The notes under the pieces are model-generated. The model saw nothing but the letters and a program-made list of their open reading frames with translations. It did not search any database and had not been told where the DNA came from. The translations under genes were made by a program, and so were the position numbers. From an uncultured Gammaproteobacteria bacterium (GTDB lineage Bacteria > Patescibacteriota > Microgenomatia > UBA10105 > UBA927), in contig CAYUKU010000002.1 of assembly GCA_964445435.1 (NCBI GenBank), positions 47,988 to 111,987 on the forward strand: a stretch of DNA of 64,000 bases, written 5' to 3'. Below, one piece after another: positions 26,259 to 51,841 of the stretch (its first letter is position 1; every line of letters begins with the position of its first letter).

Positions 26259-26304
26259 TCTGGCCGGTACAATACATCATTTCTCCTTCTGTTACAATGG
26301 GAGG

Positions 26305-28493: not shown

Positions 28494-29840
28494 CTATCTT
28501 TTATATATCCGTGAAAGGATTCGCGCAATCCACCAGAAATGGAAAAAGAAAAGGAAGGTTTGTGTGGTGATCATATGGCGGGCGAATTCCCATGCGCCCC
28601 CGAAGATGAGACTTGAGACGAGCTGATATCCCTCGATGAGAGCGATTGCGAAAAGAAATGAGTGAATGGGTGTTGGCCTTTTCAGAAATAACCATACGGA
28701 AAAAGGCGCAAGGAAAAGAAAGATGATTGTAGATTTCTGAATCGTGCGTACGATCCACTCGAAGGTATCAAATACTGCGCGTGCCAGACTCGGAGTAGCC
28801 GCACGGTACAAAACGCCGTACATTTCCGTATCCGAGAACGCTTTCGGCACATCTTCAATGACAGATGCGGCAAATGCGGGGAACTGATCCCGGATAACAA
28901 GCCGGTTGAATTCCTGAAGGCTATCGAGGCGTCCGTATATTTCATTGTTGTAATAGACGAAGAAATACCAGGGTATGCTGACATTTCCTCCCTTTTGGCG
29001 ATACTCGGTTACCTGGGTAAAGAGCGGCTGGACCCGGGCGGCTGCATCGACGGGAATGTCAAATAAGAGGATTCTCCCGAAAACAGCGAAGTCCGTGTTG
29101 TAACTGATACCCCGGAATCCATGGAGCAGTCGGTTGCCGACAAGAAGGCCCGCCGGAACCGCGCTGTAGAGGATGAGGGATGCCGCCATAAGTATAAACA
29201 CGCGTTTTGTCCGGTGTGCCCAGAAAACAATCGGTAATAGAAGAAACGGAATAAGAAGTCCTGCGGGACGGATGAGAAATTCATACCCGGCAAGGATGGT
29301 AAACAAAGCTGCGGTGGGTGCGGAAGGTCGCTGAAGAAGCTTTACAAAAAGCCAGAGAAGAACGGTAAAAAGCGAAATATACAATGATTCCGTAAGAAGC
29401 GCGCGGTCCCAGATAAACTGGTAAATGTTCAGTGCGGTGAATCCCGTGAAAGCGGCCGTATGGGAAGACGAAACACCCACGGTCATGAGCATATCGAAGA
29501 GAAATATGAGCGATACGATGCCAATAATTGTTTGTATGGGAATAAGAATGAAACTTCGTTCAATAAATTCCTGTGACTTGTAGGGCGGATACGTGTCGCC
29601 GGTTGCCCCCACAGCAAGAGACGTCAGGAGCGTATATCCGGGAGTTCTGTTGGGATTTATGAGATTGGTGAGGAAGTTTTTCCCGAAGAAGTTTTCCTCG
29701 ACGTAATACCCCTGACTGTCAGGCTTCAGAACGATCGTGTTACCACTGTAGTGTATATACCACAGTCGTATGAAGGATGCCAAAACGAGAATGCCAAAAA
29801 GAATGAAACGGTGGGAATACGTGCGTGACTGGCGCGGCAT
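28494..29840 (-). CDS. Polytopic membrane protein (putative glycosyltransferase or flippase-like)
   Basis: Start MPRQSRTY (ATG at 29838-29840), about 11 TM helices. The divergent neighbour starts 25 bp away. Confidence 0.6.
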   Translation of the reverse strand: MPRQSRTYSHRFILFGILVLASFIRLWYIHYSGNTIVLKPDSQGYYVEENFFGKNFLTNLINPNRTPGYTLLTSLAVGATGDTYPPYKSQEFIERSFILIPIQTIIGIVSLIFLFDMLMTVGVSSSHTAAFTGFTALNIYQFIWDRALLTESLYISLFTVLLWLFVKLLQRPSAPTAALFTILAGYEFLIRPAGLLIPFLLLPIVFWAHRTKRVFILMAASLILYSAVPAGLLVGNRLLHGFRGISYNTDFAVFGRILLFDIPVDAAARVQPLFTQVTEYRQKGGNVSIPWYFFVYYNNEIYGRLDSLQEFNRLVIRDQFPAFAASVIEDVPKAFSDTEMYGVLYRAATPSLARAVFDTFEWIVRTIQKSTIIFLFLAPFSVWLFLKRPTPIHSFLFAIALIEGYQLVSSLIFGGAWEFARHMITTQTFLFFFHFWWIARILSRIYKR

Positions 29841-29865
29841 AGGTACTAGTATATAATACCTCCAC

Positions 29866-30807
29866 ATGAAGACGATTCTTGTCACCGGCGGCGCAGGATT
29901 CATCGGATCACATGTCACGCGAGGATATATAAAAGCAGGGTATCGTGTTGTGGTTTTCGATGATTTGTCGACGGGAAGAAAAGACGCGATTCCCAAGAAA
30001 GCTCACTTCGCAAAAGGCGATGTGCGGGATAATAAAGCTTTGGCGCGGACATTTCTGACATATCAGCCAGATATCGTGTGTCACATCGCAGGGCGCGCCT
30101 CGAACATCGGTTCGTATATGGATCCGCGGGGTGATATCGAGGTCAATTACTTCGGATCGGTGAACGTCGTTTTGGCGAGTTTGAAATACAAGGTAAAGCG
30201 GTTTGTGTATGCTTCGAGCATGCTTGCTGCCGGACCGGACGGCCCTTCGTCGTATTACGGCGTATCCAAGTACGCGGCAGAGCGGTTTATCCATCTGACG
30301 GCAAGGCGTCCGGATATTGCTGCCCCATTTGATGTAACGTCGCTACGCATGTTTAATGTTTTCGGCCCCGGACAGAGTATAACCAATCCGTATCAGGGGG
30401 TGCTTGCGATATTTATAGGAAACGTACTGCGAGGTGAGGAAATTAAGATATTCGGTTCGGGTGACCAGTCGCGGGACTTCATATCTGTTCACGATGTCGT
30501 AGATGTATGGGTTCGCGTTGTCGATGCAAAGGAAACGTATGGAAAAGTGCTTGACGTAGGAAGTGGAAGGCCAACGTCGATTAACGTCCTGGCCCGAAGC
30601 GTCATACGAGCCGCGGGCGCTAACCCAAAAACATATCCCATCGTCCATCTGGCACCCCGGCCAGGGGATATACCGCGGTCTGCCGCGAGACTGACACAAA
30701 CGAAGCGGCTTCTGCCGGGATGGAGGCAAACGAGCTTCACGAAGGCGTTAACAGAAACCATTGCATGGGCGCGGGAAGATTTACGAAGAAACGGCAAGGG
30801 AGCATAG
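29866..30807 (+). CDS. NAD-dependent epimerase/dehydratase
   Basis: [17 protein letters not shown]ossmann motif with YxxxK (YGVSKYAAE). Confidence 0.85.
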
Positions 30808-31833
30808 CTCGTCAAGAATGCGGTTCGTGTCGTATGTCTGTTTCCAGAACGGATAATGGGAGCGGAATTTCTTCACGTTTGAGATGTACCAGATATGATC
30901 GCCCCGTCTTGGCGTTGCGTTGTAGGTAATTTTTGCTTTCTTCCCCAAGCGCGATTCGATGATAGGTATGGCTTCCAGAATTGAGACGTTGGAGAATCTG
31001 CCGCCGCCCATATTGTAGACTTCGCCCACACGCGGACGCCGGTAAAACTGCCAAAACGCCTGCACGAGATCATATGCATGGATATTGTCGCGGACCTGTT
31101 TCCCTTTGTATCCATGGATCGTGTAGGGGATGCCGCTTGCTATAGCGCGGACGAGGTATGCCAGAAATCCGTGTTGGGGCGCTCCTGCGTGCGCGGGCCC
31201 GGTGATGCACCCACAACGGAAGATGCCGGTTCTGAGTGCGAAGTACCGGCCGTATTCCTGCACGAGAATATCTGCCGATACCTTCGAGGCGCCAAACAGG
31301 CTATGAAGCGACGTATCGATACTCATCGATTCGTCGATGCCGCGATAGTGCGGATTGTTGCTGCGCAGTTCAAAGCGGGTTTTCTTCTCGATGAAGGGAA
31401 GCAGGTTGGGGCGATCGCCGTAGACTTTGTTGGTGGACGTAAACAGAAATACACCCTTGGGACAGTGGCGCCGGTACGACTCAAGAAGCGACAATGTGGC
31501 AGCTGCGTTTATAGAGAAATCCGTCATCGGATCAGAAGCCGCCCAATCATGGGATGGTTGGGCGGCGGTGTGGATGACCAGATCGAAGTGATGCTTGCTG
31601 AAGAGTTCCTCTACTTTTCTCGCGTTTCTGATGTCAAAGGAGAAATGTTGGTACGAGGGATGTATCCTGAGAAGGAGGCGCGCGTTGGCACGGGTGCTTG
31701 CCGTCGCCCCGAAGAATTGCGCGCGCATATCGTTGTCGATGCCGAATACCGCAAATCCGCGTTTGGCGAAAAAGTCTACCGCCTGACTGCCGACCAGTCC
31801 GCCGGAGCCGGTTACTAAGACCTTTTTCTTCAT
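30781..31833 (-). CDS. NAD-dependent epimerase/dehydratase (CDP-sugar 2-epimerase-like subgroup)
   Basis: [17 protein letters not shown]...[12 protein letters not shown]...YGASKVSAD. Confidence 0.8.
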
Positions 31834-31850: not shown

Positions 31851-32750
31851 TTGTCTTGCTGTTGGCAACCAACGTTCTGGTATACTCCACGTATGCGTTG
31901 CGTTGTGTGTGATCACGCCCGACTCACTACCTTGTTTCCCCACAAAGCGGGACATATGGCGCGGTGCGAATCGTGCGGACTCGTCCAACTTGTCCCCATG
32001 CCGACTGCAAAAGAGATCAGGAAACTCTACCACGAAGATTTCAGCCACTTCGCGCCGTATCTGGAACAGATTGAAGTACACCGCGCGTATTTCCGCCAAA
32101 AAATGTTGGAAATAGGGAGACGCGTAGGGAGAAAAACGAATAAAGGAATGAAGCTTCTGGATATAGGTTGCGCGATGGGTGTACTTCTTGAGGAAGCAAA
32201 GCTTATAGGAATTGAGGGAGTAGGCGTGGATATATCTCGTGATGCAGCCCGATATTGCAAGGCGAAAGGGCTTAACGTGCACGCAGGGACCATCGCTAGC
32301 TTCGCAAGGCCAGGCCTTGCGAAGCGGAAATTCGATGTGATTACCGCATTCCAGATAATCGAGCATGAACGCGATCCGATAGGATTTATGTATAGGATAC
32401 ATAAATTACTCAAAAAGGGCGGTTTGGTCGTCCTCGCAACCCCTGACTCTGGGGGATTCTGGCGGAAGATCATGGGACGACGGTGGTTTGGGTTTGCTCA
32501 TCCGGAGCATGTGGTCCTTCTGTCTTCTGAAAGTATGCGGCGGCTTCTTGAGATATCCGGATTTCGGGATATAGAAATTAGAAGAGATACGCCGCGCCCC
32601 TTTCCTTTGTCTTTTGTCTTCACCAGAGGAGCAGATTACTTCCCGTCACTTGGCTGGATCCTCAAACCGATCGGAAAGCTTCTGGACCGGTTCAACATAA
32701 AGAATCCTGTAAATCCGTGGGATGACATGATAGTATTTGCACGCGTATGA
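31851..32750 (+). CDS. Class I SAM-dependent methyltransferase with an N-terminal Cys4 zinc-ribbon
   Basis: Probable start at MRCVVCDH (~31893), with CxxC...CxxC. SAM motif I LLDIGCAMG, and FDVITAFQIIEH for post-I. Confidence 0.8.
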   Translation: MSCCWQPTFWYTPRMRCVVCDHARLTTLFPHKAGHMARCESCGLVQLVPMPTAKEIRKLYHEDFSHFAPYLEQIEVHRAYFRQKMLEIGRRVGRKTNKGMKLLDIGCAMGVLLEEAKLIGIEGVGVDISRDAARYCKAKGLNVHAGTIASFARPGLAKRKFDVITAFQIIEHERDPIGFMYRIHKLLKKGGLVVLATPDSGGFWRKIMGRRWFGFAHPEHVVLLSSESMRRLLEISGFRDIEIRRDTPRPFPLSFVFTRGADYFPSLGWILKPIGKLLDRFNIKNPVNPWDDMIVFARV

Positions 32751-35426: not shown

Positions 35427-37319
35427 TTACTGATTCGGTATATCAAGCGGCGGACTGAGAACCGGCGTCGGAGTAGGGGTGGCGGTTGGTGCAGGGAGTG
35501 ATGGGTTTCTCAGGGCATCGAGTTCTTGGGCAACAATGCGCGCGTCGTCGCTTCCCGGTGTGACGAATTTCTGCGCCTGCTCAAGCGCTGAAAGCGCCTG
35601 TATATCATCGCCGTTTATGCGGTATGCGTTTCCGAGATTGTACCAGGCGTTCGCGTAGTTAGGTTTAAGCTTGGTGGCCCGGTCAAACTGGGCGATTGCT
35701 TTGGGATAGTCTTTCATCCGAAGATAGATACTTCCTAGCTCAAGAGGAAGGACAGGATTGACAGGATCGCGTTTGATGGCTTCACCAAGCGTCGTTATCG
35801 CCCACGAATCGGCGCCCTGGGCCACACCGATGAGTTGCTCGTAAATGCGTGCGAGATTTTCCCATGCAAGGATATTGAGGGGATTGAGGGAAACTGCGGC
35901 TTTGGCTTCACGAATGGACTGTGAGACAAGCTGGGTCACGAGATTCCGATCCTGTAAGATGGCCTCGCTTGAGGCTTCGTTTCGCTCGGCGAGACTCCCG
36001 GCAAGCGACGTGGCCAGGGCGAGATTCGTCTGGCTATAGATGATGCGGTACCGGCTGACTCCCGGATTGGTCTTTATGGCGGCTACCTGAAGGTTATATG
36101 TTTGGGTGCCGTTGTTGTCTTGCGCGGCTTTCAAAGAGCGGTAGAAAAGCCGCTCTGCCACGAGAGCCCGGCTGGTGCCATAGAATCCGGAAATAAGAAT
36201 TACTCCTGCAAAAACAAGAAAAATTATGCGCGGTGCGTTTTTCATCGTATGACTATGGATAGGATGCGAAGCGGATTCGGAATAAATGAGAAGTCCCGCA
36301 AGGACGATGAGAACGGAGACATTCGGCGGGGTAATAAGAAGGGCAATTGCCCCCAAAACAAGGGCTAGGGATATACCCGGTTCTGAGGAGGCATGCCGGT
36401 GTTTCCCAAGTAGATTTTTCAGAAGCAGTCCCATTCCCAGAAGTCCGGGGAGCCCCCAGACGGTAATGAAGTGGAAGACCCATGATGAGCTTAATGTGAA
36501 ACGGACGCTCCAGAGCGGGGTCACATTAAAGCTTGCCGGTCGTGCCGCAGAAAACGCAGCGAGGAAGTTTTCCGTTCCCACCCCAACCATAGCCTGTTTG
36601 GGACTTTTGAGAATATCAAGCATCATTGCCCAGCCCTGCGAAAGGGGCAGAAGCGTTCCCGTGATTCTTGGAACAAGCTGCCACAAGGTGACAGCGAGTC
36701 CCGCCAATACGACGATGCTCATCAGGCTAAACACGACGAGCCGGGATTCATGTTTGTGCTTCCAGGCCGCTTTCGCCTGCAGGATAAAGAGAGGAAGCGT
36801 CATGCCTAAAAGCGTGGCCGTCGCAACGGTCGATCCTGTGGGTGTCCAAAGAGAGTCGGTAAGAAACGGTACCGAGGGAAACATCACGCGCCCCATCCCT
36901 AAAAATTGATACACGGCAAGAATTCCGAGGAACGATACGCCGCCGCCCAGAATCCACAGAAATGATTTGCGCGCGCCCTCATGCCAATACGTCGGCGCGA
37001 TAAACGAAAGAATCGCAAGGGCGGCAAACGTCACCGGGCCCAGGGGGTGGGTGAGTGCTTCTATTTTATTGGGAGACGCCGTAAAAAGACTGATAAACCC
37101 CGCCAGGGAGAGGACGGCAAGCGTTATCGCTGACGGCGAGAGGGAAGTTGAGGCCCGGGGTGATTTGCAAATCGTCATCCAAGCCCATCCGGCAACCGTG
37201 ATAAGACAGACATATACAAGAAGAAACCATTTGGCGGAATCGTAGAAATCCGAGATGACGGGAGCAAAAAAGATAGGCGCAAGCGCGAAAAAGAGAACAG
37301 GGATCATACCGTCCATCAT
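35427..37319 (-). CDS. Polytopic membrane protein (O-antigen ligase/polymerase-like) fused to C-terminal TPR repeats
   Basis: About 12 TM helices followed by about 4 TPR units (AWENLARIY..., ANAWYNLGNAYRINGD...). A Pro/Thr-rich tail follows. Confidence 0.65.
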   Translation of the reverse strand: MMDGMIPVLFFALAPIFFAPVISDFYDSAKWFLLVYVCLITVAGWAWMTICKSPRASTSLSPSAITLAVLSLAGFISLFTASPNKIEALTHPLGPVTFAALAILSFIAPTYWHEGARKSFLWILGGGVSFLGILAVYQFLGMGRVMFPSVPFLTDSLWTPTGSTVATATLLGMTLPLFILQAKAAWKHKHESRLVVFSLMSIVVLAGLAVTLWQLVPRITGTLLPLSQGWAMMLDILKSPKQAMVGVGTENFLAAFSAARPASFNVTPLWSVRFTLSSSWVFHFITVWGLPGLLGMGLLLKNLLGKHRHASSEPGISLALVLGAIALLITPPNVSVLIVLAGLLIYSESASHPIHSHTMKNAPRIIFLVFAGVILISGFYGTSRALVAERLFYRSLKAAQDNNGTQTYNLQVAAIKTNPGVSRYRIIYSQTNLALATSLAGSLAERNEASSEAILQDRNLVTQLVSQSIREAKAAVSLNPLNILAWENLARIYEQLIGVAQGADSWAITTLGEAIKRDPVNPVLPLELGSIYLRMKDYPKAIAQFDRATKLKPNYANAWYNLGNAYRINGDDIQALSALEQAQKFVTPGSDDARIVAQELDALRNPSLPAPTATPTPTPVLSPPLDIPNQ

Positions 37320-37335
37320 ACGGTATACGACCCCT

Positions 37336-39969
37336 TTACTGCAATTGATTGAGGCGCTCGGAAGCCTCGGGATTGCCCGGATCTAACTCCTGGAATTTGA
37401 GGTACGCGGCTTTTGCATCGCCCTTCCGTCCCATCATAAGATAGAGATCGCCAAGCGTTGCGTAGGCATGGGGGCGCATTTCCTCGTCAAGAGCGGCAAG
37501 CTTGAGGAATATTTCCGATTCTTCATACCGTTTCGTCGTCATGTAGAGACTGCCGAGGGCAAACTGCGCCTGGGCTTTGAAGGGTGTAGCAAGGGCGCGT
37601 TTGAAGGTTTCTTCGGCCTCTGCAATTTTTCCCTGATTTTGGTATACGCTTCCCAGACCGATATATCCATTTCCGTGGGGGTTCATCTCAATCACTTTTT
37701 GAAAGAGTGGAATTGCTTCCGTCAGGTTTCCTACCTGGTAATAATAAAATCCGAGACCTTGATACCGGTCGGCTTTGGGATTTACTTCTATGCTTTTTTT
37801 CAGAAGCGCTTCCGCTTCCTTTTGTCTTCCGGTTTGCATGTAGAGCTCAGACAGTCCGATGTAAAGGTCGCTTCCCGGGTTCACCTCGCGGGCCTTGGTA
37901 TACATCGCTTCCGCCTCCTCGTACCGTCGCGTCCGAAGGTACACGTCTCCTAAAGCCACATACAACCCGTCATAGGTCGGATCAATCGCAATTGCCTTCT
38001 TGAGCGTTTCTTCGGCTTTGTCAAACTCCCGGTACTGCATATAAAGATAGGAGAGCCCAAACATCATGCCGATGTCTTTGGGGTTTATGGCAAGCGCCCG
38101 GGAAAATGCCCGTTCAGAGTCATCGTGTCTCCTTGTGATCCGGTAGAGTTTGCCCAGGTCAAAGTATGCTGCCGTATCATCCGGATGATGACGGATAGCC
38201 CTGAGAAACAGCTGTTCGGCTCTGGAGTATTCACCTTTTGTATATGCGATACGGCCGGACCCCACGAAATATGAGGCGTTGGTGGGATCGAAAGCTGCAA
38301 TCCTGGCAAACTCATTTTCTGCTTCATCAAGTCTGTCCTGCTTAATAAGCGCGTTGCCGAGTCCGGCAAGCAGGGTCGCGTTCTTCGGCGCGGATTCAAG
38401 TCCCTTGCGGTAGGCCTTTTCTGAATCGGAAAAGCGCTGGAGCTGGAAATACTTGTCACCCAACACGGTAAATCTGCTTTCGGAGGAGGCGCGCTTAAAG
38501 AGCGTAACGGTGAAGTATTCTGTTGTGATGATTGTCCGAAGGGGTATGTAGGGCAGGCGTTCCATGAGATAGGGAATGCAGTCATCGAATGCGACCGTGC
38601 TTGCTGTCTCTGATGGGCCGACACACCTCAAGAATAGATATTCCGTATCATGGGGGGTTATGGGAATGCCGCGATGCGGATATGTGCCAACGATTTTGCG
38701 TCCGGTTTTTTCCTCGATGAGATGGTAGAAAAGATAGTCGTCATTGAGGTTGTAGACAATGTTCCCGGCTTCTTTCCCTGCTTTTATCTGGAAAAACGAT
38801 ACATCCTGCGGGAGTTCATTCGCTATCACGTTGGTTGCTTTTTGCGCAGTTTGATAAAGAAGCGGGACGCGATATCGGAAATTGTGTGAAAACGACTGGA
38901 CAAAAAATAAGGAAACACCTACGCCAACGATGGCCAGATATCGGTTCACAAAGACGGTTTTGGCAAGAATGACGGCAAGATACAGAAGACTAAATAGTCC
39001 AGCAATGTGAAGGTAATGTTCAACCGGCGGTACGCCCAAAAGTGGCAGAACGAAGACGGGAAAACAGGAAAGCAGAAGCAATGCCAGTGCCCATGGCTTC
39101 TGCACGCTGCTCTCTTTCCCGGCAAAAAACCAGACGCTCAGGACGAAGACTATGGTGAGTAGCCAGGGTACATTCGTAGAGAAGAGTATGGAAAAAAAGA
39201 GGCTGAGATACGGCTCCAGTCTGCTGGCGTAGCCGTCAAGAGCGGGAGCGAACGCAGCATAGATTTGCGTCCGGGTGACTGTTGACTGGGATACCATTGA
39301 ATAGGCAACACTGCCAAATGCCACGATTACCGAGATAACGAAGGTGATGCCGAGCCGAAACGCCAGGCGAAAGCGGCGCGCGATACGCCTGGCTACAAAC
39401 CAAACGGCCAGAAGATAGGCGGGCGCATAGAGAAGGGGGGAGAGTTGGAACGATAGGGATAGAATATAGACAATAATGCTGGCATAAATCAGACGGGCGT
39501 TTTTCGTACGGTAACTCTGAAAAAGCAGATACGCGCTTAGAAGAAAAAACGGGAGCATCAGATACGGTTGGAAGAAGAATCGGGAAGCACGCATGCCCCA
39601 GGCACTCAGACTGAGAAACACGACGGCAAGAAGTCCCGCCCGGGATCCGAAGAGAGCCCGTGTCATTTTCCATGCAATAAAAGCCATGCCGGTTTGGAGC
39701 AGTATGTTTACTGCGTTGAGTGTGAAGATACTCCTAAAGAAAAGAAGAAAGAAAGAGAGGAAGTAATAATACAAGGGGCTATTGATCGAGAGCGTTCCCT
39801 GTGCCGCGGTTGTCCCGACCAGGGGGAATTCTCGGTACTTCATGATGTGTGAGCTCACCAGATATTCAAGTGAGGGATCAAGGGAATTCAAGTCGGGATA
39901 GTTAAAGAGATACAGGACAAGCCGCAGGATGAGCGTGCCAGTGAGTATAAGAATTATGGGAAGTTTCAT
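37336..39969 (-). CDS. GT-C-like membrane domain fused to a ~12-unit TPR array (TMTC-like architecture)
   Basis: Start MKLPIILILTG (ATG at 39967-39969). The N-terminal ~480 aa are polytopic with an SPLYYY motif. The C-terminal ~450 aa form a continuous run of 34-aa TPRs (W-LG-Y-A-F-P consensus). Confidence 0.75.
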   Translation of the reverse strand: MKLPIILILTGTLILRLVLYLFNYPDLNSLDPSLEYLVSSHIMKYREFPLVGTTAAQGTLSINSPLYYYFLSFFLLFFRSIFTLNAVNILLQTGMAFIAWKMTRALFGSRAGLLAVVFLSLSAWGMRASRFFFQPYLMLPFFLLSAYLLFQSYRTKNARLIYASIIVYILSLSFQLSPLLYAPAYLLAVWFVARRIARRFRLAFRLGITFVISVIVAFGSVAYSMVSQSTVTRTQIYAAFAPALDGYASRLEPYLSLFFSILFSTNVPWLLTIVFVLSVWFFAGKESSVQKPWALALLLLSCFPVFVLPLLGVPPVEHYLHIAGLFSLLYLAVILAKTVFVNRYLAIVGVGVSLFFVQSFSHNFRYRVPLLYQTAQKATNVIANELPQDVSFFQIKAGKEAGNIVYNLNDDYLFYHLIEEKTGRKIVGTYPHRGIPITPHDTEYLFLRCVGPSETASTVAFDDCIPYLMERLPYIPLRTIITTEYFTVTLFKRASSESRFTVLGDKYFQLQRFSDSEKAYRKGLESAPKNATLLAGLGNALIKQDRLDEAENEFARIAAFDPTNASYFVGSGRIAYTKGEYSRAEQLFLRAIRHHPDDTAAYFDLGKLYRITRRHDDSERAFSRALAINPKDIGMMFGLSYLYMQYREFDKAEETLKKAIAIDPTYDGLYVALGDVYLRTRRYEEAEAMYTKAREVNPGSDLYIGLSELYMQTGRQKEAEALLKKSIEVNPKADRYQGLGFYYYQVGNLTEAIPLFQKVIEMNPHGNGYIGLGSVYQNQGKIAEAEETFKRALATPFKAQAQFALGSLYMTTKRYEESEIFLKLAALDEEMRPHAYATLGDLYLMMGRKGDAKAAYLKFQELDPGNPEASERLNQLQ

Positions 39970-40008
39970 TGACAGTCCGCAGAACGGATGACAGTATGAT
40001 AATACATT

Positions 40009-41622
40009 ATGCGCAGGTTGCCTATTTGGGACATTCTTGCAATCATCATCATCGTGATCGGTATCGGTATCCGCCTGAGCCGTCTTGATATTCCCTTTGA
40101 CCCTGAAGATGTCCACCTGGATTATCTGGCTGCCCATCATATGGTCCGGTATGGCGAGATTCCATGGAGCGGATCGGGGAATCCGATCCTCATTGACAGC
40201 CCGCTGTACTACTACATCGTCGCGTTTTTCGTACGAATCTACGATTCACTGTTTTTCCTGGCAGTTGCCAATATCACGGTTATTCAGGGTATAACGTTTG
40301 CGCTTATGTACCGCATCGCAAGTGTTCTTTTTAACCGCAGGTCAGGCGTACTGACGCTTCTTTTTGCGGTCTTCAGCCACGAATACATCGCACAGGGAGC
40401 ATACTTCTTCCAGACGCACGTGATGCAGGTGTTTGCAAACGGGGCACTGTTATTTCTCCTTCTTTTTCATGAACGGAAACATATCCGGTTTGCGTATGCA
40501 AGCATTCTCTCGTTTGTCGCGGCTTTGACGATTCATCATTCACTCCTCGCGCTTGCGCCGCTATATGCAGTGTTTCTGTTTGCAGGCATCAGGAGTAAGA
40601 ACAAAGGGCGTACTGCGGCGGCTCTTATAGGTGTGGCGCTTGGGGTGTTCGTGTTTTTCCATATACCTATTGCCATGCTCATCTGGAAGGATCCTTCAGT
40701 CGGAGAGCGTATCGCGGGAACATTTGCCGCCGGATTCGTCGGATCGTTCGCCGAGTTTGGGGAGAAACTTGCACGAAACGCGGCACAGTTTGTGTACGCA
40801 TTTTCTCTTCGTTGGGTGAAGGAAGCAGCTACGGTAAACGGGATTCTCGCAGGAACTCTTGTGGGAAGCTTCGTATTGTTTCTCCGGCACAATAAGCATG
40901 ATAAGCGGATGATGCGGCTGGTTGCGGCTGTCTTTGCACTCATCATTCAACTTGTCGTGATTGCATCACTTCTTCGCACGGGTGTATGGAATTTTACCTT
41001 CTCGTCACTCTTTGGCCTCTATCTCGCGGTCGTTTCGGCCGCAATCGTCCGGTGGCTTGAGGGATCGAGAACCGAACGGGCGATAGGATGGGGCATAGTG
41101 CTTCTCACTTTGTATGCGTTTTCCAACGGATTTTCCTTCATGATCCCTTCTCAGTATCCCCCGTTCTACCGGTGGAATATCACGAAGGATTCGTTGGCCG
41201 CAGTGGCCCGGACGGTACAGGAAGTGAGGGTGGCGGAAAAAAGAAGCGATGTTTCGTTTTTCCGGATCGAGCGGGTACACAAAAAGCCGGAAGGCGGGTT
41301 CTATGTCGATGTCTATTCAAAAAACCGCATTCAGGTGATAGAAGATATCCTGTATTGGCCCCAGTTGGAGAATATGTTCGCCACCCGTTTCGTCCGCATG
41401 GAGAAGGACGGCACGTTCCCCACGATTCTCAACGGGGATGATTTCGTCTTCGTCATCTGCGACTCGACGCGCGCCCCATTTGCCGGTGTGAACGACTGTA
41501 TAACACGGTATCTGACTGAAAAACCGCAGTATTCGTACGAACGGATTATTTATGAACGGTATCCGATAACGATTTTCCTCGTGCGGCGCAACGGGAAAGA
41601 TTTAGCGGCCGTAAAAATTTGA
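40009..41622 (+). CDS. Polytopic membrane protein, paralog of the membrane domain of the TPR fusion gene
   Basis: It shares D.E.....L..H.M.(Y)gEiPw.G....L.SPLYYY and downstream helices with the N-terminal domain of 37336-39969. The two genes are divergently transcribed with a 39-bp spacer. Confidence 0.7.
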   Translation: MRRLPIWDILAIIIIVIGIGIRLSRLDIPFDPEDVHLDYLAAHHMVRYGEIPWSGSGNPILIDSPLYYYIVAFFVRIYDSLFFLAVANITVIQGITFALMYRIASVLFNRRSGVLTLLFAVFSHEYIAQGAYFFQTHVMQVFANGALLFLLLFHERKHIRFAYASILSFVAALTIHHSLLALAPLYAVFLFAGIRSKNKGRTAAALIGVALGVFVFFHIPIAMLIWKDPSVGERIAGTFAAGFVGSFAEFGEKLARNAAQFVYAFSLRWVKEAATVNGILAGTLVGSFVLFLRHNKHDKRMMRLVAAVFALIIQLVVIASLLRTGVWNFTFSSLFGLYLAVVSAAIVRWLEGSRTERAIGWGIVLLTLYAFSNGFSFMIPSQYPPFYRWNITKDSLAAVARTVQEVRVAEKRSDVSFFRIERVHKKPEGGFYVDVYSKNRIQVIEDILYWPQLENMFATRFVRMEKDGTFPTILNGDDFVFVICDSTRAPFAGVNDCITRYLTEKPQYSYERIIYERYPITIFLVRRNGKDLAAVKI

Positions 41623-43101
41623 GGTCAGCTGTTCAACCGGCGCGTGGTCATCCGTGAGAATAGATGCTCTCTCAAGCGGTCCCGTATATCGGTTTGAGAG
41701 ATAGGCGCCCAGTTCTCTGTCATCGGTTGACCAGTCCGGACGAACAGTCGATTTGAGCGCCACCAGAATGACGTTCTGAATCTTTTCCGGTTGATCAGGG
41801 AATGAAACGGGAAAGACATACACCTGGGGGAATACGCGGGCAAGCGTTTCCGCCTCTGCCGCAAGAAACCTGCTGTGTGGACCGGTGACAGACGAGATGA
41901 TATTTATAAGGACGCTACCGTCATAATTCAGCCGGTCATAGGCTGCCCGCGCCATTTCGATGGTCGTCAGATGAAATGGGATGGTGTACTGGGGATCAAA
42001 CGCGTCGATAAATATGACGTCATACCGCGAGGTGTTTGATGTGAGGAAAAGGCGGGCGTCTTCATCTATGATTCTAAGTGTCGGGTAGTCGTTAAGACGA
42101 AAATAGGTATTGGCGATATCGGTAAGCTCTGAATCTATCTCTACGACGTCAATCTGCTTGTCGGGGTTTCTGCGCACAAAATCCTTGGGAAATGAATATC
42201 CGCCGCCGCCGATCATAAGCGTGCGGTTTGCCGCCGGGGTGAAATATAAAGCAAGGCGGAAAAATTTGAGGTACGTTGCCACAAGATCATCATCGCGGTC
42301 CAGAAACATGCTTGACTGTGATCCGTACGGACTTGAGCGCAGGTACCGGGTCGGCCGTCCTGAAAGCCTGTCTGTCGAATCCACAATCCAGTAACGGCCA
42401 TACACTGTGTCCCAGTCGCCGACACTTCCCGGCCAGGAAAGGATGGATGTGCCTTGGGTGAGAGTGAGTGCGAAGGCGGCAGTCAGAAACAACGCGAGCA
42501 TCTGAAAGAAGTTGCTTTTTTCCCACGGAATCCAAAACGCTGCAAGTGCACTAAGCGTGCCTGAGAGAAGAAGGAGAGTTCTGGCATTCCCAAAGGCAGA
42601 AATGAGGTAAAATCCCGAGAGGAATGTCCCTACAATACTCCCGATGGTTGAAATAGCATAAATGCGGGCTACCGTTCTACCTGCGTGGGTAAGCGTTTTC
42701 ATCGCCCGGCCGGTGCAGTAGGGGAGAATTGTCCCCAAGGCCACCGTTGTCGGCCCGAAGAGAATAAGGGTCGCCAATATAGACCGCAGCCTCAAATCAG
42801 GCACGGAAAAAAGTGCCGCAAGAACCTGATGGGTGATAGCCACCGTCAAGCCGAGAAACAGGCCAGCCGCAAGAAGGAGCCACCCGAGGACGTTGGCTCT
42901 TGCCCCATCGGCGAGCCTGCCGCCTATGATATAGCCCAGCGAGAGCATGGCCATAATGCAGCCGATGATGCCTGTCCAGGCCACGAGGGAGGTGCCTATC
43001 GCAGGAGCAAGAACGCGGCTGGCAGTCAGCTCCAGGATCATAACCACCGCGCCGCTTATGCCTGCAGTGATCTCAAGTTTCAACGCGGGCGAGACCTTCA
43101 T
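41602..43101 (-). CDS. Membrane-anchored spermidine-synthase-like aminopropyltransferase (polytopic N-terminus fused to an SpeE-like domain)
   Basis: Start MKVSPALKL (ATG at 43099-43101), about 7 TM helices. The C-terminal domain has LMIGGGGYS...VDVVEIDSEL...DVIFIDAFDP, the SpeE Rossmann and substrate motifs. Confidence 0.8.
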   Translation of the reverse strand: MKVSPALKLEITAGISGAVVMILELTASRVLAPAIGTSLVAWTGIIGCIMAMLSLGYIIGGRLADGARANVLGWLLLAAGLFLGLTVAITHQVLAALFSVPDLRLRSILATLILFGPTTVALGTILPYCTGRAMKTLTHAGRTVARIYAISTIGSIVGTFLSGFYLISAFGNARTLLLLSGTLSALAAFWIPWEKSNFFQMLALFLTAAFALTLTQGTSILSWPGSVGDWDTVYGRYWIVDSTDRLSGRPTRYLRSSPYGSQSSMFLDRDDDLVATYLKFFRLALYFTPAANRTLMIGGGGYSFPKDFVRRNPDKQIDVVEIDSELTDIANTYFRLNDYPTLRIIDEDARLFLTSNTSRYDVIFIDAFDPQYTIPFHLTTIEMARAAYDRLNYDGSVLINIISSVTGPHSRFLAAEAETLARVFPQVYVFPVSFPDQPEKIQNVILVALKSTVRPDWSTDDRELGAYLSNRYTGPLERASILTDDHAPVEQLTSNFYGR

Positions 43102-43156
43102 ACGCGTATCATAGCACGGAGAAAGCGCGTTCTGAGGCGAAATAAGCCTATAGCAT

Positions 43157-43186
43157 TTGACTTTGGCGTGTATGTTAGCGTACAAT
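43157..43186 (+). promoter_or_regulatory. Sigma70-like promoter (TTGACT, 18 bp, TACAAT)
   Basis: TTGACT at 43157-43162 and TACAAT at 43181-43186 with an 18-nt spacer. A G-rich start follows about 7 nt downstream. Confidence 0.4.
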
Positions 43187-43276: not shown

Positions 43277-43470
43277 CCGTGACGGCATGTGTGCCTATCG
43301 GTTATTACGAAGAACAGATATCGGTGAGTGGCTTCGAGTTTCTTTTCGGAGACTGGGAGCCACTCATCGTGAGGGTGGTCATCACACGTAAGGAGCAATG
43401 GGGGAAAGGAATTGAATCGGTTAAGAGTAACAACAAGCGGGACAAACGTCCCGGGAAGGAAGAAGACACA

Positions 43471-44502
43471 ATGGCTACAACAACCAAGAAAAGCCACCCG
43501 AATGCGCTGTTTATCGTCCAACGGTTCGCGCTGTTTGCTGTCGCGGTGTTAGCGGTCGGTTCAATCTTTCTGGCTACCGTGCAGGCACAGGTTCCCAACC
43601 TCCCGCCCGCCGGTCCGGTGAGTGAGACCACGGCAACGCCCAGCGCGACGCCAACCGAGACGGTGACGCCAACGTTCACACCAACCGTCACGCGCACGCC
43701 CGCGCCCACGCTCATCCCGTGTCCGCCCGTAGGACAGCCGACCAGCTTTGGAGAAATCCAGGTGGTCTTCCATGAGGCTGTCCCCTCAAAGGCTTGCCAC
43801 TACGTCTTGCTCTATGCCGAGCTGACGAGCGACGAGTTTGCCGAGATGGGAATTGCGACCGGACCGGTTGAAATCGCCGTTTTCGCGACGGTCGATGCCA
43901 TCACGGAGTACGTCTACGAGACAGCCCGTCTCGCAGGCTGCAATCCTGATGACAAAGAGATCATCCGGTCTCAATGGATTCGCGGAGGCGCAATGGTCAC
44001 CAAGGGTGCCGTGTTCCTGCGTGAGGGCAAAGTTGAAGCGTCATTTGACATCGCGAGCCACATCGCGGGCGAAGTCACTCAGGCGACCATGATCAACATT
44101 CTTGGCTCTTGCCAGCTCAAGTGGCAGGTGCCGGATTGGTACGCGCATGGATTGTCGGAGTACCACATGGAGGTCTTCACCAACGAGTGGGGATTGAAAC
44201 CCTGGGAGGAGGATCTCTATAAGTGTCGCTATCGCCTTGAGCAGCTCAAGCCAGGAGAAGAATGTATCTATATGGAGGCTCAGATGGCTTTCCATCTCCT
44301 GAGAGAGTTGTCAGGCGCTGATCGCGGCATGGACGTGATTATTCAAATGAGCAAAGGAAAAAGTTTCAACACGGCGTTTTACGACGTGTACGGCTTATCC
44401 GTTTCGGACTTTTCCAATGCTTTTGATGAATACCGCGCCCACGGGTACAGACTGGCGCCTACGTCCACACCATCGACGCCACCGTCGGGAGACGGAGGTT
44501 AA
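43471..44502 (+). CDS. Secreted or anchored hypothetical protein with a Thr/Pro-rich linker
   Basis: ATG at 43471 preceded by GGAAGG. N-terminal hydrophobic anchor, a TPTxT-rich segment, then a ~250-aa globular domain with several Cys. Confidence 0.6.
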   Translation: MATTTKKSHPNALFIVQRFALFAVAVLAVGSIFLATVQAQVPNLPPAGPVSETTATPSATPTETVTPTFTPTVTRTPAPTLIPCPPVGQPTSFGEIQVVFHEAVPSKACHYVLLYAELTSDEFAEMGIATGPVEIAVFATVDAITEYVYETARLAGCNPDDKEIIRSQWIRGGAMVTKGAVFLREGKVEASFDIASHIAGEVTQATMINILGSCQLKWQVPDWYAHGLSEYHMEVFTNEWGLKPWEEDLYKCRYRLEQLKPGEECIYMEAQMAFHLLRELSGADRGMDVIIQMSKGKSFNTAFYDVYGLSVSDFSNAFDEYRAHGYRLAPTSTPSTPPSGDGG

Positions 44503-44598: not shown

Positions 44599-45153
44599 AT
44601 GGACGTGCAACAGTCTCAAGCGATACCATCCACTCCCGTTCAACCCGTGGCTGCCCAGCCGACCTCGGTTTCTGTTCAGGCACAGCCTCTGAATCCCTCC
44701 CAACCTGTCCAACCGACAACTACCGTTCAGCCTCCGAAGCGCAAAAAGGGTCCGTGGTGGATCTTCGTTCTGGCAATTTTCATCCTCGCGGGAGTCGGAG
44801 GGTATTTCTTATTGCCAAGTAGCAGTATCGTCATCCCGAGTCAGCCTGCCGGAAGTACATCGATCCATGTGACGAAGCTCGATCTTGCCAAGCCGGGGTG
44901 GCTTCTTATTTCCCGCGTGTCTGTCACCGAAGGAGTTGAGGAAATTGCTGTATCTGCGTACCTTGAGCCGGAGGAGTATACGGAATTTGACCTACCCCTC
45001 ATGGATGACTCAGAACCGCTCCAAACTGGATATTTCCTCTACGGGACGCTGTATGAAGATACCGACGGAGGCGAGTATTTCGATAGCAAAGTGGATCAGC
45101 CGATGAAGGATTGGCTCGGCCGGAAGATTCGGACGACATTCCGCGTACTGTGA
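44599..45153 (+). CDS. Small membrane-anchored protein, member of a 4-copy local paralog family
   Basis: Pro/Gln-rich N-terminus, one TM helix (WWIFVLAIFILAGVGGYFLL) and a ~100-aa C-terminal domain. That domain is homologous to the C-termini of 45907-46323 and 47598-48008 (shared D.P..D.FGRkI...F.v ending). Confidence 0.6.
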   Translation: MDVQQSQAIPSTPVQPVAAQPTSVSVQAQPLNPSQPVQPTTTVQPPKRKKGPWWIFVLAIFILAGVGGYFLLPSSSIVIPSQPAGSTSIHVTKLDLAKPGWLLISRVSVTEGVEEIAVSAYLEPEEYTEFDLPLMDDSEPLQTGYFLYGTLYEDTDGGEYFDSKVDQPMKDWLGRKIRTTFRVL

Positions 45154-45157
45154 TACT

Positions 45158-45862
45158 TCAATAAATGGTAGCCTCGGGGAGCATCTCTTTTAGTGTCGCG
45201 TAATAAGATGGTTCTATGGGATTCCCACCCAGGAAAAGAAATTGGAGTTTCGTGAGGTTGCGTAGTGTATCCGGCAGTCGGGAAATTTTATTGTTGCGAA
45301 GATCCAGAGATGTGAGGTTGGTGAGATTGCCTATGGATGGAGGAATTTCAGTCAGCATATTATTGCTGAGCGTAAGCTTCGTAAGCGCAGTGAGATTTCC
45401 CATTTCGTCAGGCAAGATGGCAATAGCATTATTTGATGCATCCAAAAGTTCGAGATCCCGAAGATTAGCTATCGAAGGGGGAAGTGTCGTTATGGGCGTT
45501 CCGCGGATGGTAACGGAGGTAAGTGCCGTAAGTTGACCGATTTCTTCAGGGAGCATCGAGAGTTGTGTTCCGTCGATAGTCAATTTCCTGAGGTTGGTAA
45601 GTGTCGCTATTTCGGGAGGGAGTGTCGCAAGGTTATCTTCTTGGGAGATAAACAGATCCGTCAGAGACGGGTTGCTTGTAACAAACGCCACAAAATCATC
45701 TGCGGCTTTCGTCGGGGGTGCATGTTTCGCGATAGCCACAGGAGCGCCTGAATTCGTCCGTGTCATAGCAAGCAGGTGAGGAATAAGCTGTACCACGCTT
45801 AGGGCAGCAACAAGGACAGAGAGCACGAGAAAGGCAGTAAGAATGAGGCGTTGCTGTGTCAT
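45158..45862 (-). CDS. Leucine-rich repeat protein with an N-terminal signal anchor
   Basis: About seven 23-24-aa LRRs (LxxLxxLxLxxNxLxxLPxxIGNLTxL). The C-terminus ends ...PSYYATLKEMLPEATIY. Confidence 0.85.
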   Translation of the reverse strand: MTQQRLILTAFLVLSVLVAALSVVQLIPHLLAMTRTNSGAPVAIAKHAPPTKAADDFVAFVTSNPSLTDLFISQEDNLATLPPEIATLTNLRKLTIDGTQLSMLPEEIGQLTALTSVTIRGTPITTLPPSIANLRDLELLDASNNAIAILPDEMGNLTALTKLTLSNNMLTEIPPSIGNLTNLTSLDLRNNKISRLPDTLRNLTKLQFLFLGGNPIEPSYYATLKEMLPEATIY

Positions 45863-45906
45863 TTGACGTATCTAGTATAGCATGTCACACTGGAAGGGAA
45901 ATTCGT

Positions 45907-46323
45907 ATGTGGATTGCCATCATGGCCGCATGGTTTGTTACATTAGCCTCACAGGGCGGGAGGTGGTACCTGGAGCATAATTCCATTGCAGTGCATGATC
46001 AGTTGATTGGCGAATCAGTCGAGATAGACACGATCCGTGTTCCGGGGCCTGCGCTCCTGGTCATTTCAGGATCAGTGTACGGAAAGCCGCTTCTCTCCCA
46101 GCATTTGGGAACAGTGGAGTTTTTCAAAGGCGGGACCTACCGGGCGGTTCGGGTTCCTATTTCCACGAGCTCGATGGCAAAAGAACAAGCGAAACTTGAA
46201 GGCAGTATTTCACAGGGCAATCTTGTCTATGCTGTGCTATATAGGAAAAATGCACGAAATGAAGAAAAAGAGAAACGAGATATATTCGGAAAACTTATCG
46301 CAAAGCCGTTTCGCCTCAATTAA
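45907..46323 (+). CDS. Small membrane-anchored protein, paralog of 44599-45153
   Basis: TM helix MWIAIMAAWFVTLA and a C-terminal domain homologous to the other small family members. Confidence 0.5.
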   Translation: MWIAIMAAWFVTLASQGGRWYLEHNSIAVHDQLIGESVEIDTIRVPGPALLVISGSVYGKPLLSQHLGTVEFFKGGTYRAVRVPISTSSMAKEQAKLEGSISQGNLVYAVLYRKNARNEEKEKRDIFGKLIAKPFRLN

Positions 46324-47052
46324 CTAAAAATACACTTCAGTTTGCGGAAGCATGGTTCGGATGCGCGACTGTTCTTCCGGGGAAATTTGGTTTGCACCCA
46401 GATACACTTTTTTGAGCGTCCCAGCGAGTCTGGTCATCGTCGAAGGAAGGCTCTTGAGACTATTTTTGCGCGCGTCGAGGACGGTGAGCGAGGAGAGATT
46501 GCCAATTGTTTCTGGAAGCGCAGTCAGACGGTTATCGTAGATATGCAGTGTCGTGAGAGCAGTAAGGTTGCCGATCGCATCAGGAAGCCGTGTTATATCG
46601 TTGCCCCCTAATTTCAGAATCTGCAAATGCACCAGATTTCCGATGCTCTCAGGAACGGAGGTTAAGCGCTGGTCCTGTACCTGAAATCTCGTAAGCGAGG
46701 TTAATTTTCCTACATCTTCGGGAATATCTGTTACGTTTCCATGAATAACGCCAACGCGCGTGATGCGGGGGAACGACAAGAGGGCGTCGACCGGAAGATT
46801 ATTTATGTTACAAACCGACGAGTAATCGATTGTGGTGACAAGGGGGAGTTTTTGGGCAACTGATCGCGTTGATCTGTCCACATTACGATCAAATTTGCCT
46901 CCGTCTTCACAGTATTGTGTCGGATCAAATGCCATCTGCCGTGCGACCGGCTGGGAAAGGAGCGCTCTTCCCAGAAGTATCCCGGACAGGATAGATATGC
47001 CATAGATAAAAAGCCGGTATTTGAGGCTGGAGGCTCTTGTATGTGGACGCAT
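46324..47052 (-). CDS. Leucine-rich repeat protein, paralog of 45158-45862
   Basis: LRR units IGNLTALTTL..., IGNLSSLTVL.... The C-terminal tail PEEQSRIRTMLPQTEVYF resembles the other LRR protein. Its stop codon abuts the convergent gene with no spacer. Confidence 0.85.
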   Translation of the reverse strand: MRPHTRASSLKYRLFIYGISILSGILLGRALLSQPVARQMAFDPTQYCEDGGKFDRNVDRSTRSVAQKLPLVTTIDYSSVCNINNLPVDALLSFPRITRVGVIHGNVTDIPEDVGKLTSLTRFQVQDQRLTSVPESIGNLVHLQILKLGGNDITRLPDAIGNLTALTTLHIYDNRLTALPETIGNLSSLTVLDARKNSLKSLPSTMTRLAGTLKKVYLGANQISPEEQSRIRTMLPQTEVYF

Positions 47053-47597: not shown

Positions 47598-48008
47598 ATG
47601 AAAATGTGGATACTTGCATCCATGCTGTTTTTGGCGAGTGCCATACTGTCTTCGTATATAACGATACGACGGTCTCAATTCGAGTTAGTGGTCAACGATC
47701 AACCCGTCGGCACAACGATTTTTATACAGAGACTTGTGCTTTCGCGCGCAGGGTATATCGTAATCACCCCTCAGACCGGCAGACCGGATCGCGACGTACC
47801 ATCAGTGTCTGACTACATGCCCGCAGGTGTCTACACGGATTTCAACGCAGATATTTACTGGGGCGATGAGCTTGATGTGCCTGCTTCTACACTGGTCACC
47901 GTCCGGATTCACTCGGATAACGGAGATGTATACTATGATCCTGCATTTGATCTGCCGGTTCGCGATAAATTCGGACGTATATATGAAAAAACGATTACAC
48001 TTCAGTAA
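47598..48008 (+). CDS. Small membrane-anchored protein, paralog of 44599-45153
   Basis: Signal anchor MKMWILASMLFLASAIL. The C-terminal domain ...DFNADIYWGDELDVPASTLVTVRIH...DPAFDLPVRDKFGRIYEKTITL aligns with the other family members. Confidence 0.55.
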   Translation: MKMWILASMLFLASAILSSYITIRRSQFELVVNDQPVGTTIFIQRLVLSRAGYIVITPQTGRPDRDVPSVSDYMPAGVYTDFNADIYWGDELDVPASTLVTVRIHSDNGDVYYDPAFDLPVRDKFGRIYEKTITLQ

Positions 48009-49137
48009 CGTACTGGCCCTTTTTTTGTGCGCTGTGGGAGCAGGATTTGTCTTCAGGTTGGTGTTGCATCACCAGGCAGCGTCAAGTACAGGAAGCGCCG
48101 TGCGGAGTTTGTTTGCCTTATGCGCGCGGGCAGAGGTACCGTTTGACTACGATTGCCTGCGTCGGGGAATGCTTCCGTTAGTCACGGAAGATACGCTCAT
48201 GGATGTGTTGGGAGTCCTTCAGGATGTGTTTGCCCAACCCAACGTTTCCCTCAAGACGCACGGCGCGCTGACGTGTCATCCATCCGGTCACGTTGCAGGG
48301 GAGATTGCGGTTGAGAAGGGGATTGAGTTCTCACGCGTGTCCACGCTGTGCGGTGCCATCTGCGACTACGGATGTGTGCATGGAGCGCTTGTAGCGACGC
48401 TACGGCATGACCATGAGTTTTTGGCGAAGGTCGGATCGTTGTGTGATGCGTTTCGGGCATCAGAAACCGTGCGGCAGATGTCAGCCTGTGGTCACGCCGT
48501 CGGCCATGGTCTTGCTGAGGTATTCGCTTCTGATTTTCCAAACGCCCTTGCGTACTGCGACAAATTTCAGAACGAATCTGTCCGCTCTGCATGCGGACAG
48601 GGGAGCATGATGGAGCACTTGATCGGGTTGCCGGACAGGCCAAAAAATATGAACCTCCTGTTGGATGACATACTGTCCTTTTGTGGCGGGCTTGCCGGCC
48701 GGTACAAAGAAGAATGCTTCGATAACGTCGGAACATATGCCGGACACGTGACTCAGGATGTTTTTGAAGCAAAAAACATATGCACACGAGTTCCGTCCTC
48801 CTCACGTATGAAATGCGTTCAGTCGTTGGGCGGTGTCGTTTATTACCAATTTCAGCATTCACCGCTGGCATTGAGCGCCTACTGCACATCGATGGGAGAT
48901 GCAGCAAGTCTTGCATGTATACTCGGGGCCATAGATACGAGCGTCGGCGAGTCCCGCAGCATGGAGTATGGGCGTATCCTCTGCGAGCAAATGAGGGGTA
49001 CAACGCAAAAGCGTTGTTTTGCGTATTACGGCACTCAAGTTGCTTCATCATGGGGAAGCGCAGTGCAAAAAGAAAAGTGCAGCCAGCTCAATAATGAGAA
49101 TGCCAGTGCGTGCAATTCCGGAAAGGATTCGTTATGA
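47983..49137 (+). CDS. Cys/His-rich repeat protein family, member 1 (secreted or anchored)
   Basis: Start MKKRLHFSNVLALFLCAVGAGFV overlaps the upstream ORF by 26 nt. It contains successive ~35-aa units, each with a Cys followed by aromatic/His-Gly: CHPSGHVAG, CGAICDYGCVHG, CGHAVGHG, CGQGSMMEH. Confidence 0.75.
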   Translation: MKKRLHFSNVLALFLCAVGAGFVFRLVLHHQAASSTGSAVRSLFALCARAEVPFDYDCLRRGMLPLVTEDTLMDVLGVLQDVFAQPNVSLKTHGALTCHPSGHVAGEIAVEKGIEFSRVSTLCGAICDYGCVHGALVATLRHDHEFLAKVGSLCDAFRASETVRQMSACGHAVGHGLAEVFASDFPNALAYCDKFQNESVRSACGQGSMMEHLIGLPDRPKNMNLLLDDILSFCGGLAGRYKEECFDNVGTYAGHVTQDVFEAKNICTRVPSSSRMKCVQSLGGVVYYQFQHSPLALSAYCTSMGDAASLACILGAIDTSVGESRSMEYGRILCEQMRGTTQKRCFAYYGTQVASSWGSAVQKEKCSQLNNENASACNSGKDSL

Positions 49138-50036: not shown

Positions 50037-50037
50037 A

Positions 50038-51177: not shown

Positions 51178-51178
51178 A

Positions 51179-51709: not shown

Positions 51710-51841
51710 AATATAAAACCAAAAAGATAGCTTATCCTCATCCTAGAAAGACGGTACATGTTTGTCAATAGGCAATGTAATGTAGGTTACATTCATTTCT
51801 GCGTGGATATAGGAATAAAAAAAATGTAAGATGGTGAGGAC

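Follow-up and report, generated by a model that had tools for sequence, protein, structure and literature searches.

This report concerns a 64-kb stretch of contig CAYUKU010000002.1 (the window, within which all coordinates are counted) and four genes for membrane proteins located on it, labelled P1 to P4. P2, P1 and P4 form a run on the minus strand, and P3 is transcribed divergently from P2. The open reading frames (ORFs) of P1, P2 and P3 were found where the original prediction had placed them. That prediction had read P1 and P2, two membrane proteins with C-terminal tetratricopeptide repeats (TPRs), as bacterial counterparts of the eukaryotic TMTC O-mannosyltransferases. P4, a fourth glycosyltransferase (GT)-C protein, and three genes for Dpm1/ArnC-like GT2 proteins had been omitted. 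WaaL-type enzymes, to which P1 is likened below, are by now included among the GT-Cs when the term is taken broadly. Our analysis indicates a bacterial cluster for surface glycosylation that is divergent yet still recognisable, rather than a bacterial version of the TMTC enzymes of animals.

The combination of a GT-C membrane domain with a long C-terminal TPR array, a layout like that of TMTC proteins, was confirmed for P2. Ten TPR_2 stretches cover approximately residues 500-877 (Pfam, E = 5e-55), and the GT-C fold is seen in the model of the paralog P3. This AlphaFold model, built from 14 sequences (predicted local distance difference test, pLDDT, 87.3; predicted template modelling score, pTM, 0.87), contains 11 transmembrane (TM) helices arranged as in GT-C(A) proteins, with Pmt4 as the best structural match. 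Outside the TPRs, P2 aligns with P3 over 507 aa (26% identity, E = 1e-24), and the alignment takes in the final ~120 residues; the P3 model shows them as a soluble alpha/beta domain, in which two Cys are invariant. P3 is thus a paralog of P2, as had been proposed, but not of its membrane domain alone, because the soluble domain is shared as well. Likewise, the region of ~480 aa described as polytopic in P2 does include a membrane region, but it comprises ~370 aa of helices followed by ~120 aa of the soluble alpha/beta domain.

When compared with PMT_2 (PF13231, gathering score 26.1 bits), the N-terminal 510 aa of P2 reached 22.8 bits (E = 1.2e-4) and P3 scored 26.1 bits, exactly on the cut-off. 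Among 52 relatives of the P2/P3 family, 37 matched PMT_2 at E <= 0.01, the best at E = 1.4e-12. The residues D31, E47, S64-Y69, Q92, F132-Q134, C449 and C464 of P2 are invariant in the alignment. In the first external loop (EL1) of the P2/P3 clade, an invariant Asp (D31 in P2, D34 in P3) sits at the N-terminus of the first EL1 helix; it is followed four positions on by Asp or Glu (L-D31-P...E35 in P2, E-D34-V...D38 in P3) and further on by a conserved Glu (E47/E50). The invariant Asp is the putative catalytic residue and may correspond to the conserved first-external-loop Asp of PMT_2-type enzymes (D55 in ArnT, D77 in Pmt1). The SPLYYY motif, already noted in P2, proved invariant across the clade and marks the start of the second EL1 helix; FFQ is invariant too. 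Together, the PMT_2 matches, the modelled GT-C fold of P3 and the invariant EL1 residues argue for P2 and P3 being GT-C(A) enzymes of the PMT_2/ArnT type. The alternate loops of the P3 model are rich in Lys and Arg, consistent with an N-in/C-out topology, and these loops together with the two invariant Cys of the C-terminal domain fit an external C-terminus. By helix parity and the K/R-rich loops, the TPR array of P2 is predicted to lie on the non-cytoplasmic side.

The reading frame of P2 is open upstream to position 40140. Its start was set at 39969 because the homologs P0001, P0002 and P0004 begin at the equivalent position (MKLP...). The 57 open codons at 39970-40140, 5' of the true start, overlap the start of P3 on the opposite strand, and gene callers could over-extend P2 through this open frame.

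P1 resembles P2 in its TPR region, and to this extent a similar layout had been rightly described; BLASTP similarity between the two is, however, confined to that region. The membrane domains are unrelated, with an hhalign probability of 0.3% between the P1 and the P2/P3 family profiles. In the model of P1 the membrane domain adopts the polytopic fold of the O-antigen ligase WaaL. An O-antigen-ligase-type membrane domain is the very finding that had been named beforehand as speaking against a TMTC-like protein, and the view of P1 as a second such protein was given up. No Pfam or NCBIfam model matched the first ~430 residues of P1, and Wzy_C (PF04932) gave no match at E <= 10; the distant family member P0016 matched Wzy_C over its full length with 15.6 bits (E = 0.014, cut-off 31.7). 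An external loop is strongly conserved in the family (GVGxENFLAAFSxxRP...N.TPLW.VRF), with G246, G248, N251, R260, N265 and W270 invariant in homologs down to 27% identity, R273 near-invariant and H282 present in 10 of 13 members. In CmWaaL, R191 and R265 of the long external loop bind the diphosphate and H313 is catalytic (PMC10920833). WaaL-type enzymes make up the GT-C(B) subclass, whose donors are lipid-PP-oligosaccharides, whereas GT39 and GT83 enzymes use lipid-P-monosaccharides (PMC10920833). P1 differs from WaaL and PglL-TfpO (Wzy_C, GT121, GT-C(B)) in the missing Wzy_C match, the lack of an invariant His, ~11 instead of 12 TM helices, and a C-terminus that is predicted to lie outside and bears a TPR domain and a Pro/Thr-rich tail. 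The tail is conserved in the family (consensus TPxPTPxxxPPLxLP, with P623 near-invariant) and disordered in the model (pLDDT <50). A close paralogy of all four proteins was also considered and rejected; besides the unrelated profiles of P1 and P2/P3, the P2/P3 and P4 profiles were weakly related (8.8% in profile-profile comparison).

The word-indexed searches, with 4-13 matches per family, had suggested an extremely rare family, a picture that was overturned by an exhaustive hidden Markov model (HMM) search. The P2/P3 profile retrieved 2343 cluster representatives at E <= 1e-3, and of these 299 also passed E <= 1e-30; this gives a subfamily of ~300 clusters at 50% identity. Of the 150 best representatives, nearly all are 470-580 aa long and match the profile from end to end, the architecture of P3. 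Only P0001, P0004, P0030 and P0031 are long, and TPRs are carried by P0030 and P0031. The TPR fusion is hence a derived minority form (~4 of the 150), and the common TPR-less form is probably ancestral. The fusion in P2 therefore probably arose independently of that in TMTC proteins.

The gene order around P1 to P4 was compared with seven loci (L001-L007), among them a 494-kb metagenome contig (L005) and a 73-kb contig of a metagenome-assembled genome (MAG; L007). Approximately 20 kb are conserved in two uncultured genomes (L005/L006 and L007), in the order GFO, X553, GT2, X500, two epimerases, methyltransferase, GT2, P4, P1, P2, P3, spermidine-synthase-like protein, X407 and DUF7282 protein. 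L005 is colinear with the window from GFO to DUF7282 at 46-78% identity, L007 from the epimerases to DUF7282 within the same range, and in L006 the called genes follow the same order, with the same Pfam content as in L005. The core is also present in L001, which keeps P2-P1-P4-GT2 without P3. P1 follows immediately after P2 in all loci seen. The tight divergent arrangement of P2 and P3 is kept in L005 (46 bp) and L007. In the window, P3 diverges from a 39-bp spacer that contains TATGATAAT, as had been described. A scan for consensus promoters and terminators around the spacer gave two promoter-like sites as against 1.4 +/- 1.2 in shuffled sequences, which equals chance, and the plus-strand TATGATAAT was not called; it was rejected as promoter evidence. 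Among GTDB representatives, the nearest locus bears the label "uncultured Gammaproteobacteria", which is that of the MAG CAZKLT01 (L007, L010) carrying the closest syntenic copy. More distant family members stem from Saccharibacteria, Gottesmanbacteria and other Patescibacteria MAGs.

The neighbouring genes (Table 1) comprise further candidates for glycan synthesis. P4, directly downstream of P1, scored over the PMT_2 gathering score (32.8 bits, E = 9.6e-8), carries WDEPDN after its first TM helix and is syntenic in L001, L005 and L007 with 53-58% identity. It is convergent with the GT2 that bears C-terminal TM helices (hydrophobic segments at aa 249-340), whose 3' end overlaps P4. PDB matches of this GT2 include dolichol-phosphate mannose synthase (DPMS), GtrB and ArnC; it is syntenic in the same three loci at 66-77% identity and is a candidate polyprenyl-phosphate sugar synthase. 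Leftward follow the methyltransferase and the two epimerases, the latter syntenic with 66-77% identity. The expected co-occurrence with a Dpm1-like GT2 was borne out by the DPMS-like GT2, which had its best PDB match in the Pyrococcus dolichol-phosphate mannose synthase 5mlz (E = 1.7e-14, residues 5-225), then in GtrB and ArnC; it is syntenic in L005 (67% identity), with the same order and Pfam content in L006. The flanking proteins X553 and X500 gave no Pfam matches and are syntenic in L005 with 58-62% identity. A motif of X553, FFDVDEFSYLHW, resembles a GT-C first-loop motif, and both proteins are candidates for additional GT-Cs or flippases. Farther left lie genes for a GFO oxidoreductase, two DegT aminotransferases, a 4,6-dehydratase, an ATP-grasp protein, an epimerase-HAD fusion and a third, small GT2 with sub-threshold NCBIfam scores for ArnC (5.5e-15), AglJ (3e-13) and dolichyl-phosphate hexose transferase (8e-11). 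On the other side, the fused MFS/spermidine-synthase-like protein is convergent with P3, overlaps its 3' end by 21 bp and keeps its place next to the cluster in L005, L006 and L007. The adjacent X407 has a single TM helix (aa 74-106), the linker sequence PVSETTATPSATPTETVTPTFTPTVTRTPAPT and the tail TSTPSTPPSG; it is syntenic in L005 and L007 with 46% identity and may be a glycosylation acceptor. A DUF7282 protein and two small leucine-rich repeat proteins (44599-47052) recur beside the GT-C cluster in L001, L005 and L006.

Table 1. Coordinates of the genes and protein parts discussed in the text (nt, positions in the window; aa, residues of the protein).
Feature	nt	Strand	aa	Description
P2	37336-39969	minus	877 aa	GT-C (PMT_2-type) + alpha/beta domain + TPRs
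P2, GT-C membrane domain	~38860-39969	minus	~1-370	
P2, alpha/beta domain	~38479-38859		~371-497	predicted extracytoplasmic, two conserved Cys
P2, TPR array	37339-38472		~500-877	~10-11 TPRs
P3	40009-41622	plus	537 aa	TPR-less GT-C paralog of P2
P3, membrane part			1-372	11 predicted TM helices
P3, alpha/beta domain			~387-537	C-terminal
P2/P3 divergent spacer	39970-40008			39 bp, contains TATGATAAT at 39995-40003
P1	35427-37319	minus	630 aa	WaaL/O-antigen-ligase-like + TPR-like hairpins
P1, WaaL-like domain	36120-37319	minus	1 to ~400	polytopic
P1, TPR-like hairpins			~404-604	~5 hairpins
P1, Pro/Thr-rich tail	35430-35504	minus	606-630	conserved
P4	33747-35324	minus	525 aa	fourth GT-C (PMT_2), third gene of the P2-P1-P4 run
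GT2 with C-terminal TM helices	32747-33796	plus	349 aa	Glycos_transf_2, E = 4.6e-29
Methyltransferase	31851-32750	plus	299 aa	S-adenosylmethionine-dependent, Methyltransf_23, E = 2e-25; conserved cluster member
NAD-dependent sugar epimerase/dehydratase	30781-31833	minus		Pfam Epimerase, E = 3.2e-38
NAD-dependent sugar epimerase/dehydratase	29866-30807	plus		Pfam Epimerase, E = 5.7e-48
X500	28494-29996	minus	500 aa	polytopic by hydropathy, without family
DPMS-like GT2	27747-28490	minus	247 aa	Dpm1/DPMS-like, without TM helix
X553	26134-27795	plus	553 aa	polytopic, without family; FFDVDEFSYLHW after a TM helix
Small GT2	16604-17323	minus	239 aa	ArnC / AglJ / dolichyl-phosphate hexose transferase type
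MFS/spermidine-synthase-like protein	41602-43185	minus		fused membrane protein, NF037959, E = 1.6e-69
X407	43279-44502	plus	407 aa	membrane-anchored, Thr/Pro-rich linkers

We consider it likely that the region is the central part of a conserved island of ~20-25 kb for cell-surface glycosylation, in which polyprenyl-linked sugars would be delivered to surface acceptors docked by the TPRs. In the cytoplasm, the 4,6-dehydratase, the two DegT aminotransferases, the epimerases/reductases, the GFO oxidoreductase and the methyltransferase would generate modified nucleotide sugars. The three GT2s of the Dpm1/ArnC/GtrB type would load single sugars on polyprenyl phosphate, and the lipid-linked sugars would be flipped. 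Outside the membrane, the PMT_2/ArnT-like proteins P2, P3 and P4 would transfer single sugars by means of the first-loop Asp, and P1, as a WaaL-like GT-C(B) enzyme, would ligate, transfer or polymerise a polyprenyl-diphosphate-linked glycan. Likewise on the outside, the TPR arrays of P2 and P1 would bind the acceptor, which is their most likely partner; possibly they also dock each other. By analogy with TfpW, TMTC and OGT, Ser/Thr/Pro-rich surface proteins are the favoured acceptors.

Several observations weigh against this interpretation. The score of P2 stays under the PMT_2 threshold, its fold is read from the model of a paralog, and P1 lacks any Pfam match. The search of P1 to P4 and of the P2/P3 family profile against PDB sequences retrieved nothing relevant, so that a sequence-level link to any solved GT-C is missing even via the family profile; in the NCBIfam scan, too, the membrane domains were left without a family. 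The external loop of P1 contains no invariant His among the 13 members, whereas WaaL uses His-313. No flippase, of GtrA type or other, was recognised among the scanned ORFs, a set without the small ORFs. The nearest locus bears a Gammaproteobacteria label, while the more distant relatives come from Patescibacteria MAGs. Finally, the data fit a glycan acceptor no less well than a protein, because TPR domains also occur in polysaccharide-export scaffolds.

The last point leads to an alternative that is serious, though less likely in our view: the GT-Cs would decorate a glycopolymer or a lipid-linked glycan in a three-component modification of Gtr type, as known for ArnT, GtrC and GacL, and P1 would be a Wzy-type polymerase, or else a ligase acting on an anchor in the cell wall or on a lipid one, with the TPRs as a scaffold for assembly or export. 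Gtr-type systems (GtrA/GtrB/GtrC; ArnC/ArnT; GacI/GacL) encode a polyprenyl-phosphate GT2 together with a GT-C, as does this locus. Unlike them, it combines several GT-C paralogs with a WaaL-like enzyme, and no GtrA-type flippase was recognised among the scanned ORFs. Decoration of a glycopolymer is disfavoured by Pmt4 as the top structural match of the P3 model, by the protein substrates of the TPR-bearing GT-Cs of known function (TfpW and TMTC), by the conserved Thr/Pro-rich, membrane-anchored X407 in the same syntenic block, and by the failure to recognise a Wzx, a Wzz or an initiating phosphoglycosyltransferase in the scanned ORFs. The low PMT_2 score of P2 and the missing family match of P1 would also suit non-catalytic scaffolds or chaperones that kept a GT-C-like anchor, leaving only P3 and P4 active. 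This appears very unlikely, since P2 retains all invariant residues of the P2/P3 clade, among them SPLYYY, FFQ and the Asp of EL1, and the invariant loop residues of P1 form a pattern typical of an active site.

A membership of P2, and by extension of P1, in the eukaryotic TMTC family is hardly credible in light of the present data. TMTC1-4 (GT105, DUF1736) and P2 do share the gross layout, an N-terminal GT-C(A) domain with ~11 TM helices and a subsequent TPR array on the lumenal or external, i.e. non-cytoplasmic, side (8-12 TPRs in TMTC), and TMTC-like homologs have been reported in prokaryotes (PMC7801869). In TMTC proteins, EL1 carries two adjacent Asp (DD) that are strictly conserved, its second helix opens with SHKSYRP, and a DW motif is present (PMC7801869). 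All three are absent from P2 and P3: EL1 contains one invariant Asp with an acidic residue four positions on instead of the adjacent DD, and SPLYYY stands where TMTC has SHKSYRP. DUF1736 (PF08409) was not matched at E <= 10 by the N-terminal part of P2 or by P3, nor does it appear among the families listed for the 52 relatives. P2 further differs in the alpha/beta domain between the membrane part and the TPRs, in its bacterial operon and in the probably independent fusion, the TPR-less form being common and probably ancestral, and P1 has a different fold altogether. The architecture had moreover been called rare in bacteria, which does not agree with the reported prokaryotic homologs or with TfpW of Pseudomonas aeruginosa, a characterised bacterial case. 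TfpW is a GT-C that combines 11 TM helices with a TPR domain in the periplasm; it glycosylates proteins, using a polyprenyl-phosphate monosaccharide as donor, and its homologs occur in several genera (10.1101/2020.04.19.049825). This pilin D-arabinofuranosyl transferase is the best functional analog of P2, likened by description and not by sequence. The gene for TfpW lies beside pilA and the protein has a DDX motif, whereas P2 has D-x3-[DE] and no pilin family was recognised among its scanned neighbours, short ORFs being outside that scan; the alpha/beta domain ahead of the TPRs and the pairing with a WaaL-like gene also set P2 apart. From the PMT_2 superfamily (ArnT, GT83; protein O-mannosyltransferases, GT39) the P2/P3 family is distinguished by the lack of a MIR domain and by its own SPLYYY/FFQ signature and two-Cys C-terminal domain; P3 reaches this superfamily only at threshold and shows no detectable sequence similarity to its solved members.

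Within the proposed glycosylation island, a bolder and rather improbable idea is that P2 and P1 constitute an undescribed two-enzyme machine for protein O-glycosylation. Their TPR arrays would co-recognise one Ser/Thr/Pro-rich surface protein, e.g. X407, which would receive a lipid-PP-linked glycan from one enzyme and a lipid-P-linked sugar from the other, and P1 would found a new family of the Wzy_C clan without the canonical catalytic His. The main use of the analysis lies in annotation. Two look-alike membrane-plus-TPR proteins are split into GT-C subclasses with different predicted donors, P1, so far without a family, is given a modelled O-antigen-ligase fold, and a GT-C subfamily of ~300 clusters is defined (SPLYYY/FFQ, two-Cys external domain) that Pfam and NCBIfam models hardly pick up. 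Should the organism be an episymbiont of the Patescibacteria type, the locus would be a candidate determinant of its surface glycans. No new mechanistic class is opened by these results.

The window contains no tRNA genes and no Rfam matches. Eleven tandem paralogous ORFs of 308-535 aa occupy 47827-62604 on the plus strand and are mutually similar in BLASTP (e.g. 57049-58254 and 59335-60615, 37% identity, E = 1.5e-91); the four of them that were tested had no Pfam match. Inside this array, the opposite strand encodes a protein of 408 aa that has a PT-HINT/Hint domain at its C-terminus (50038-51264, minus strand, E = 4e-13). A giant plus-strand ORF of at least 2682 aa (3-8051) is open at the 5' end of the window.

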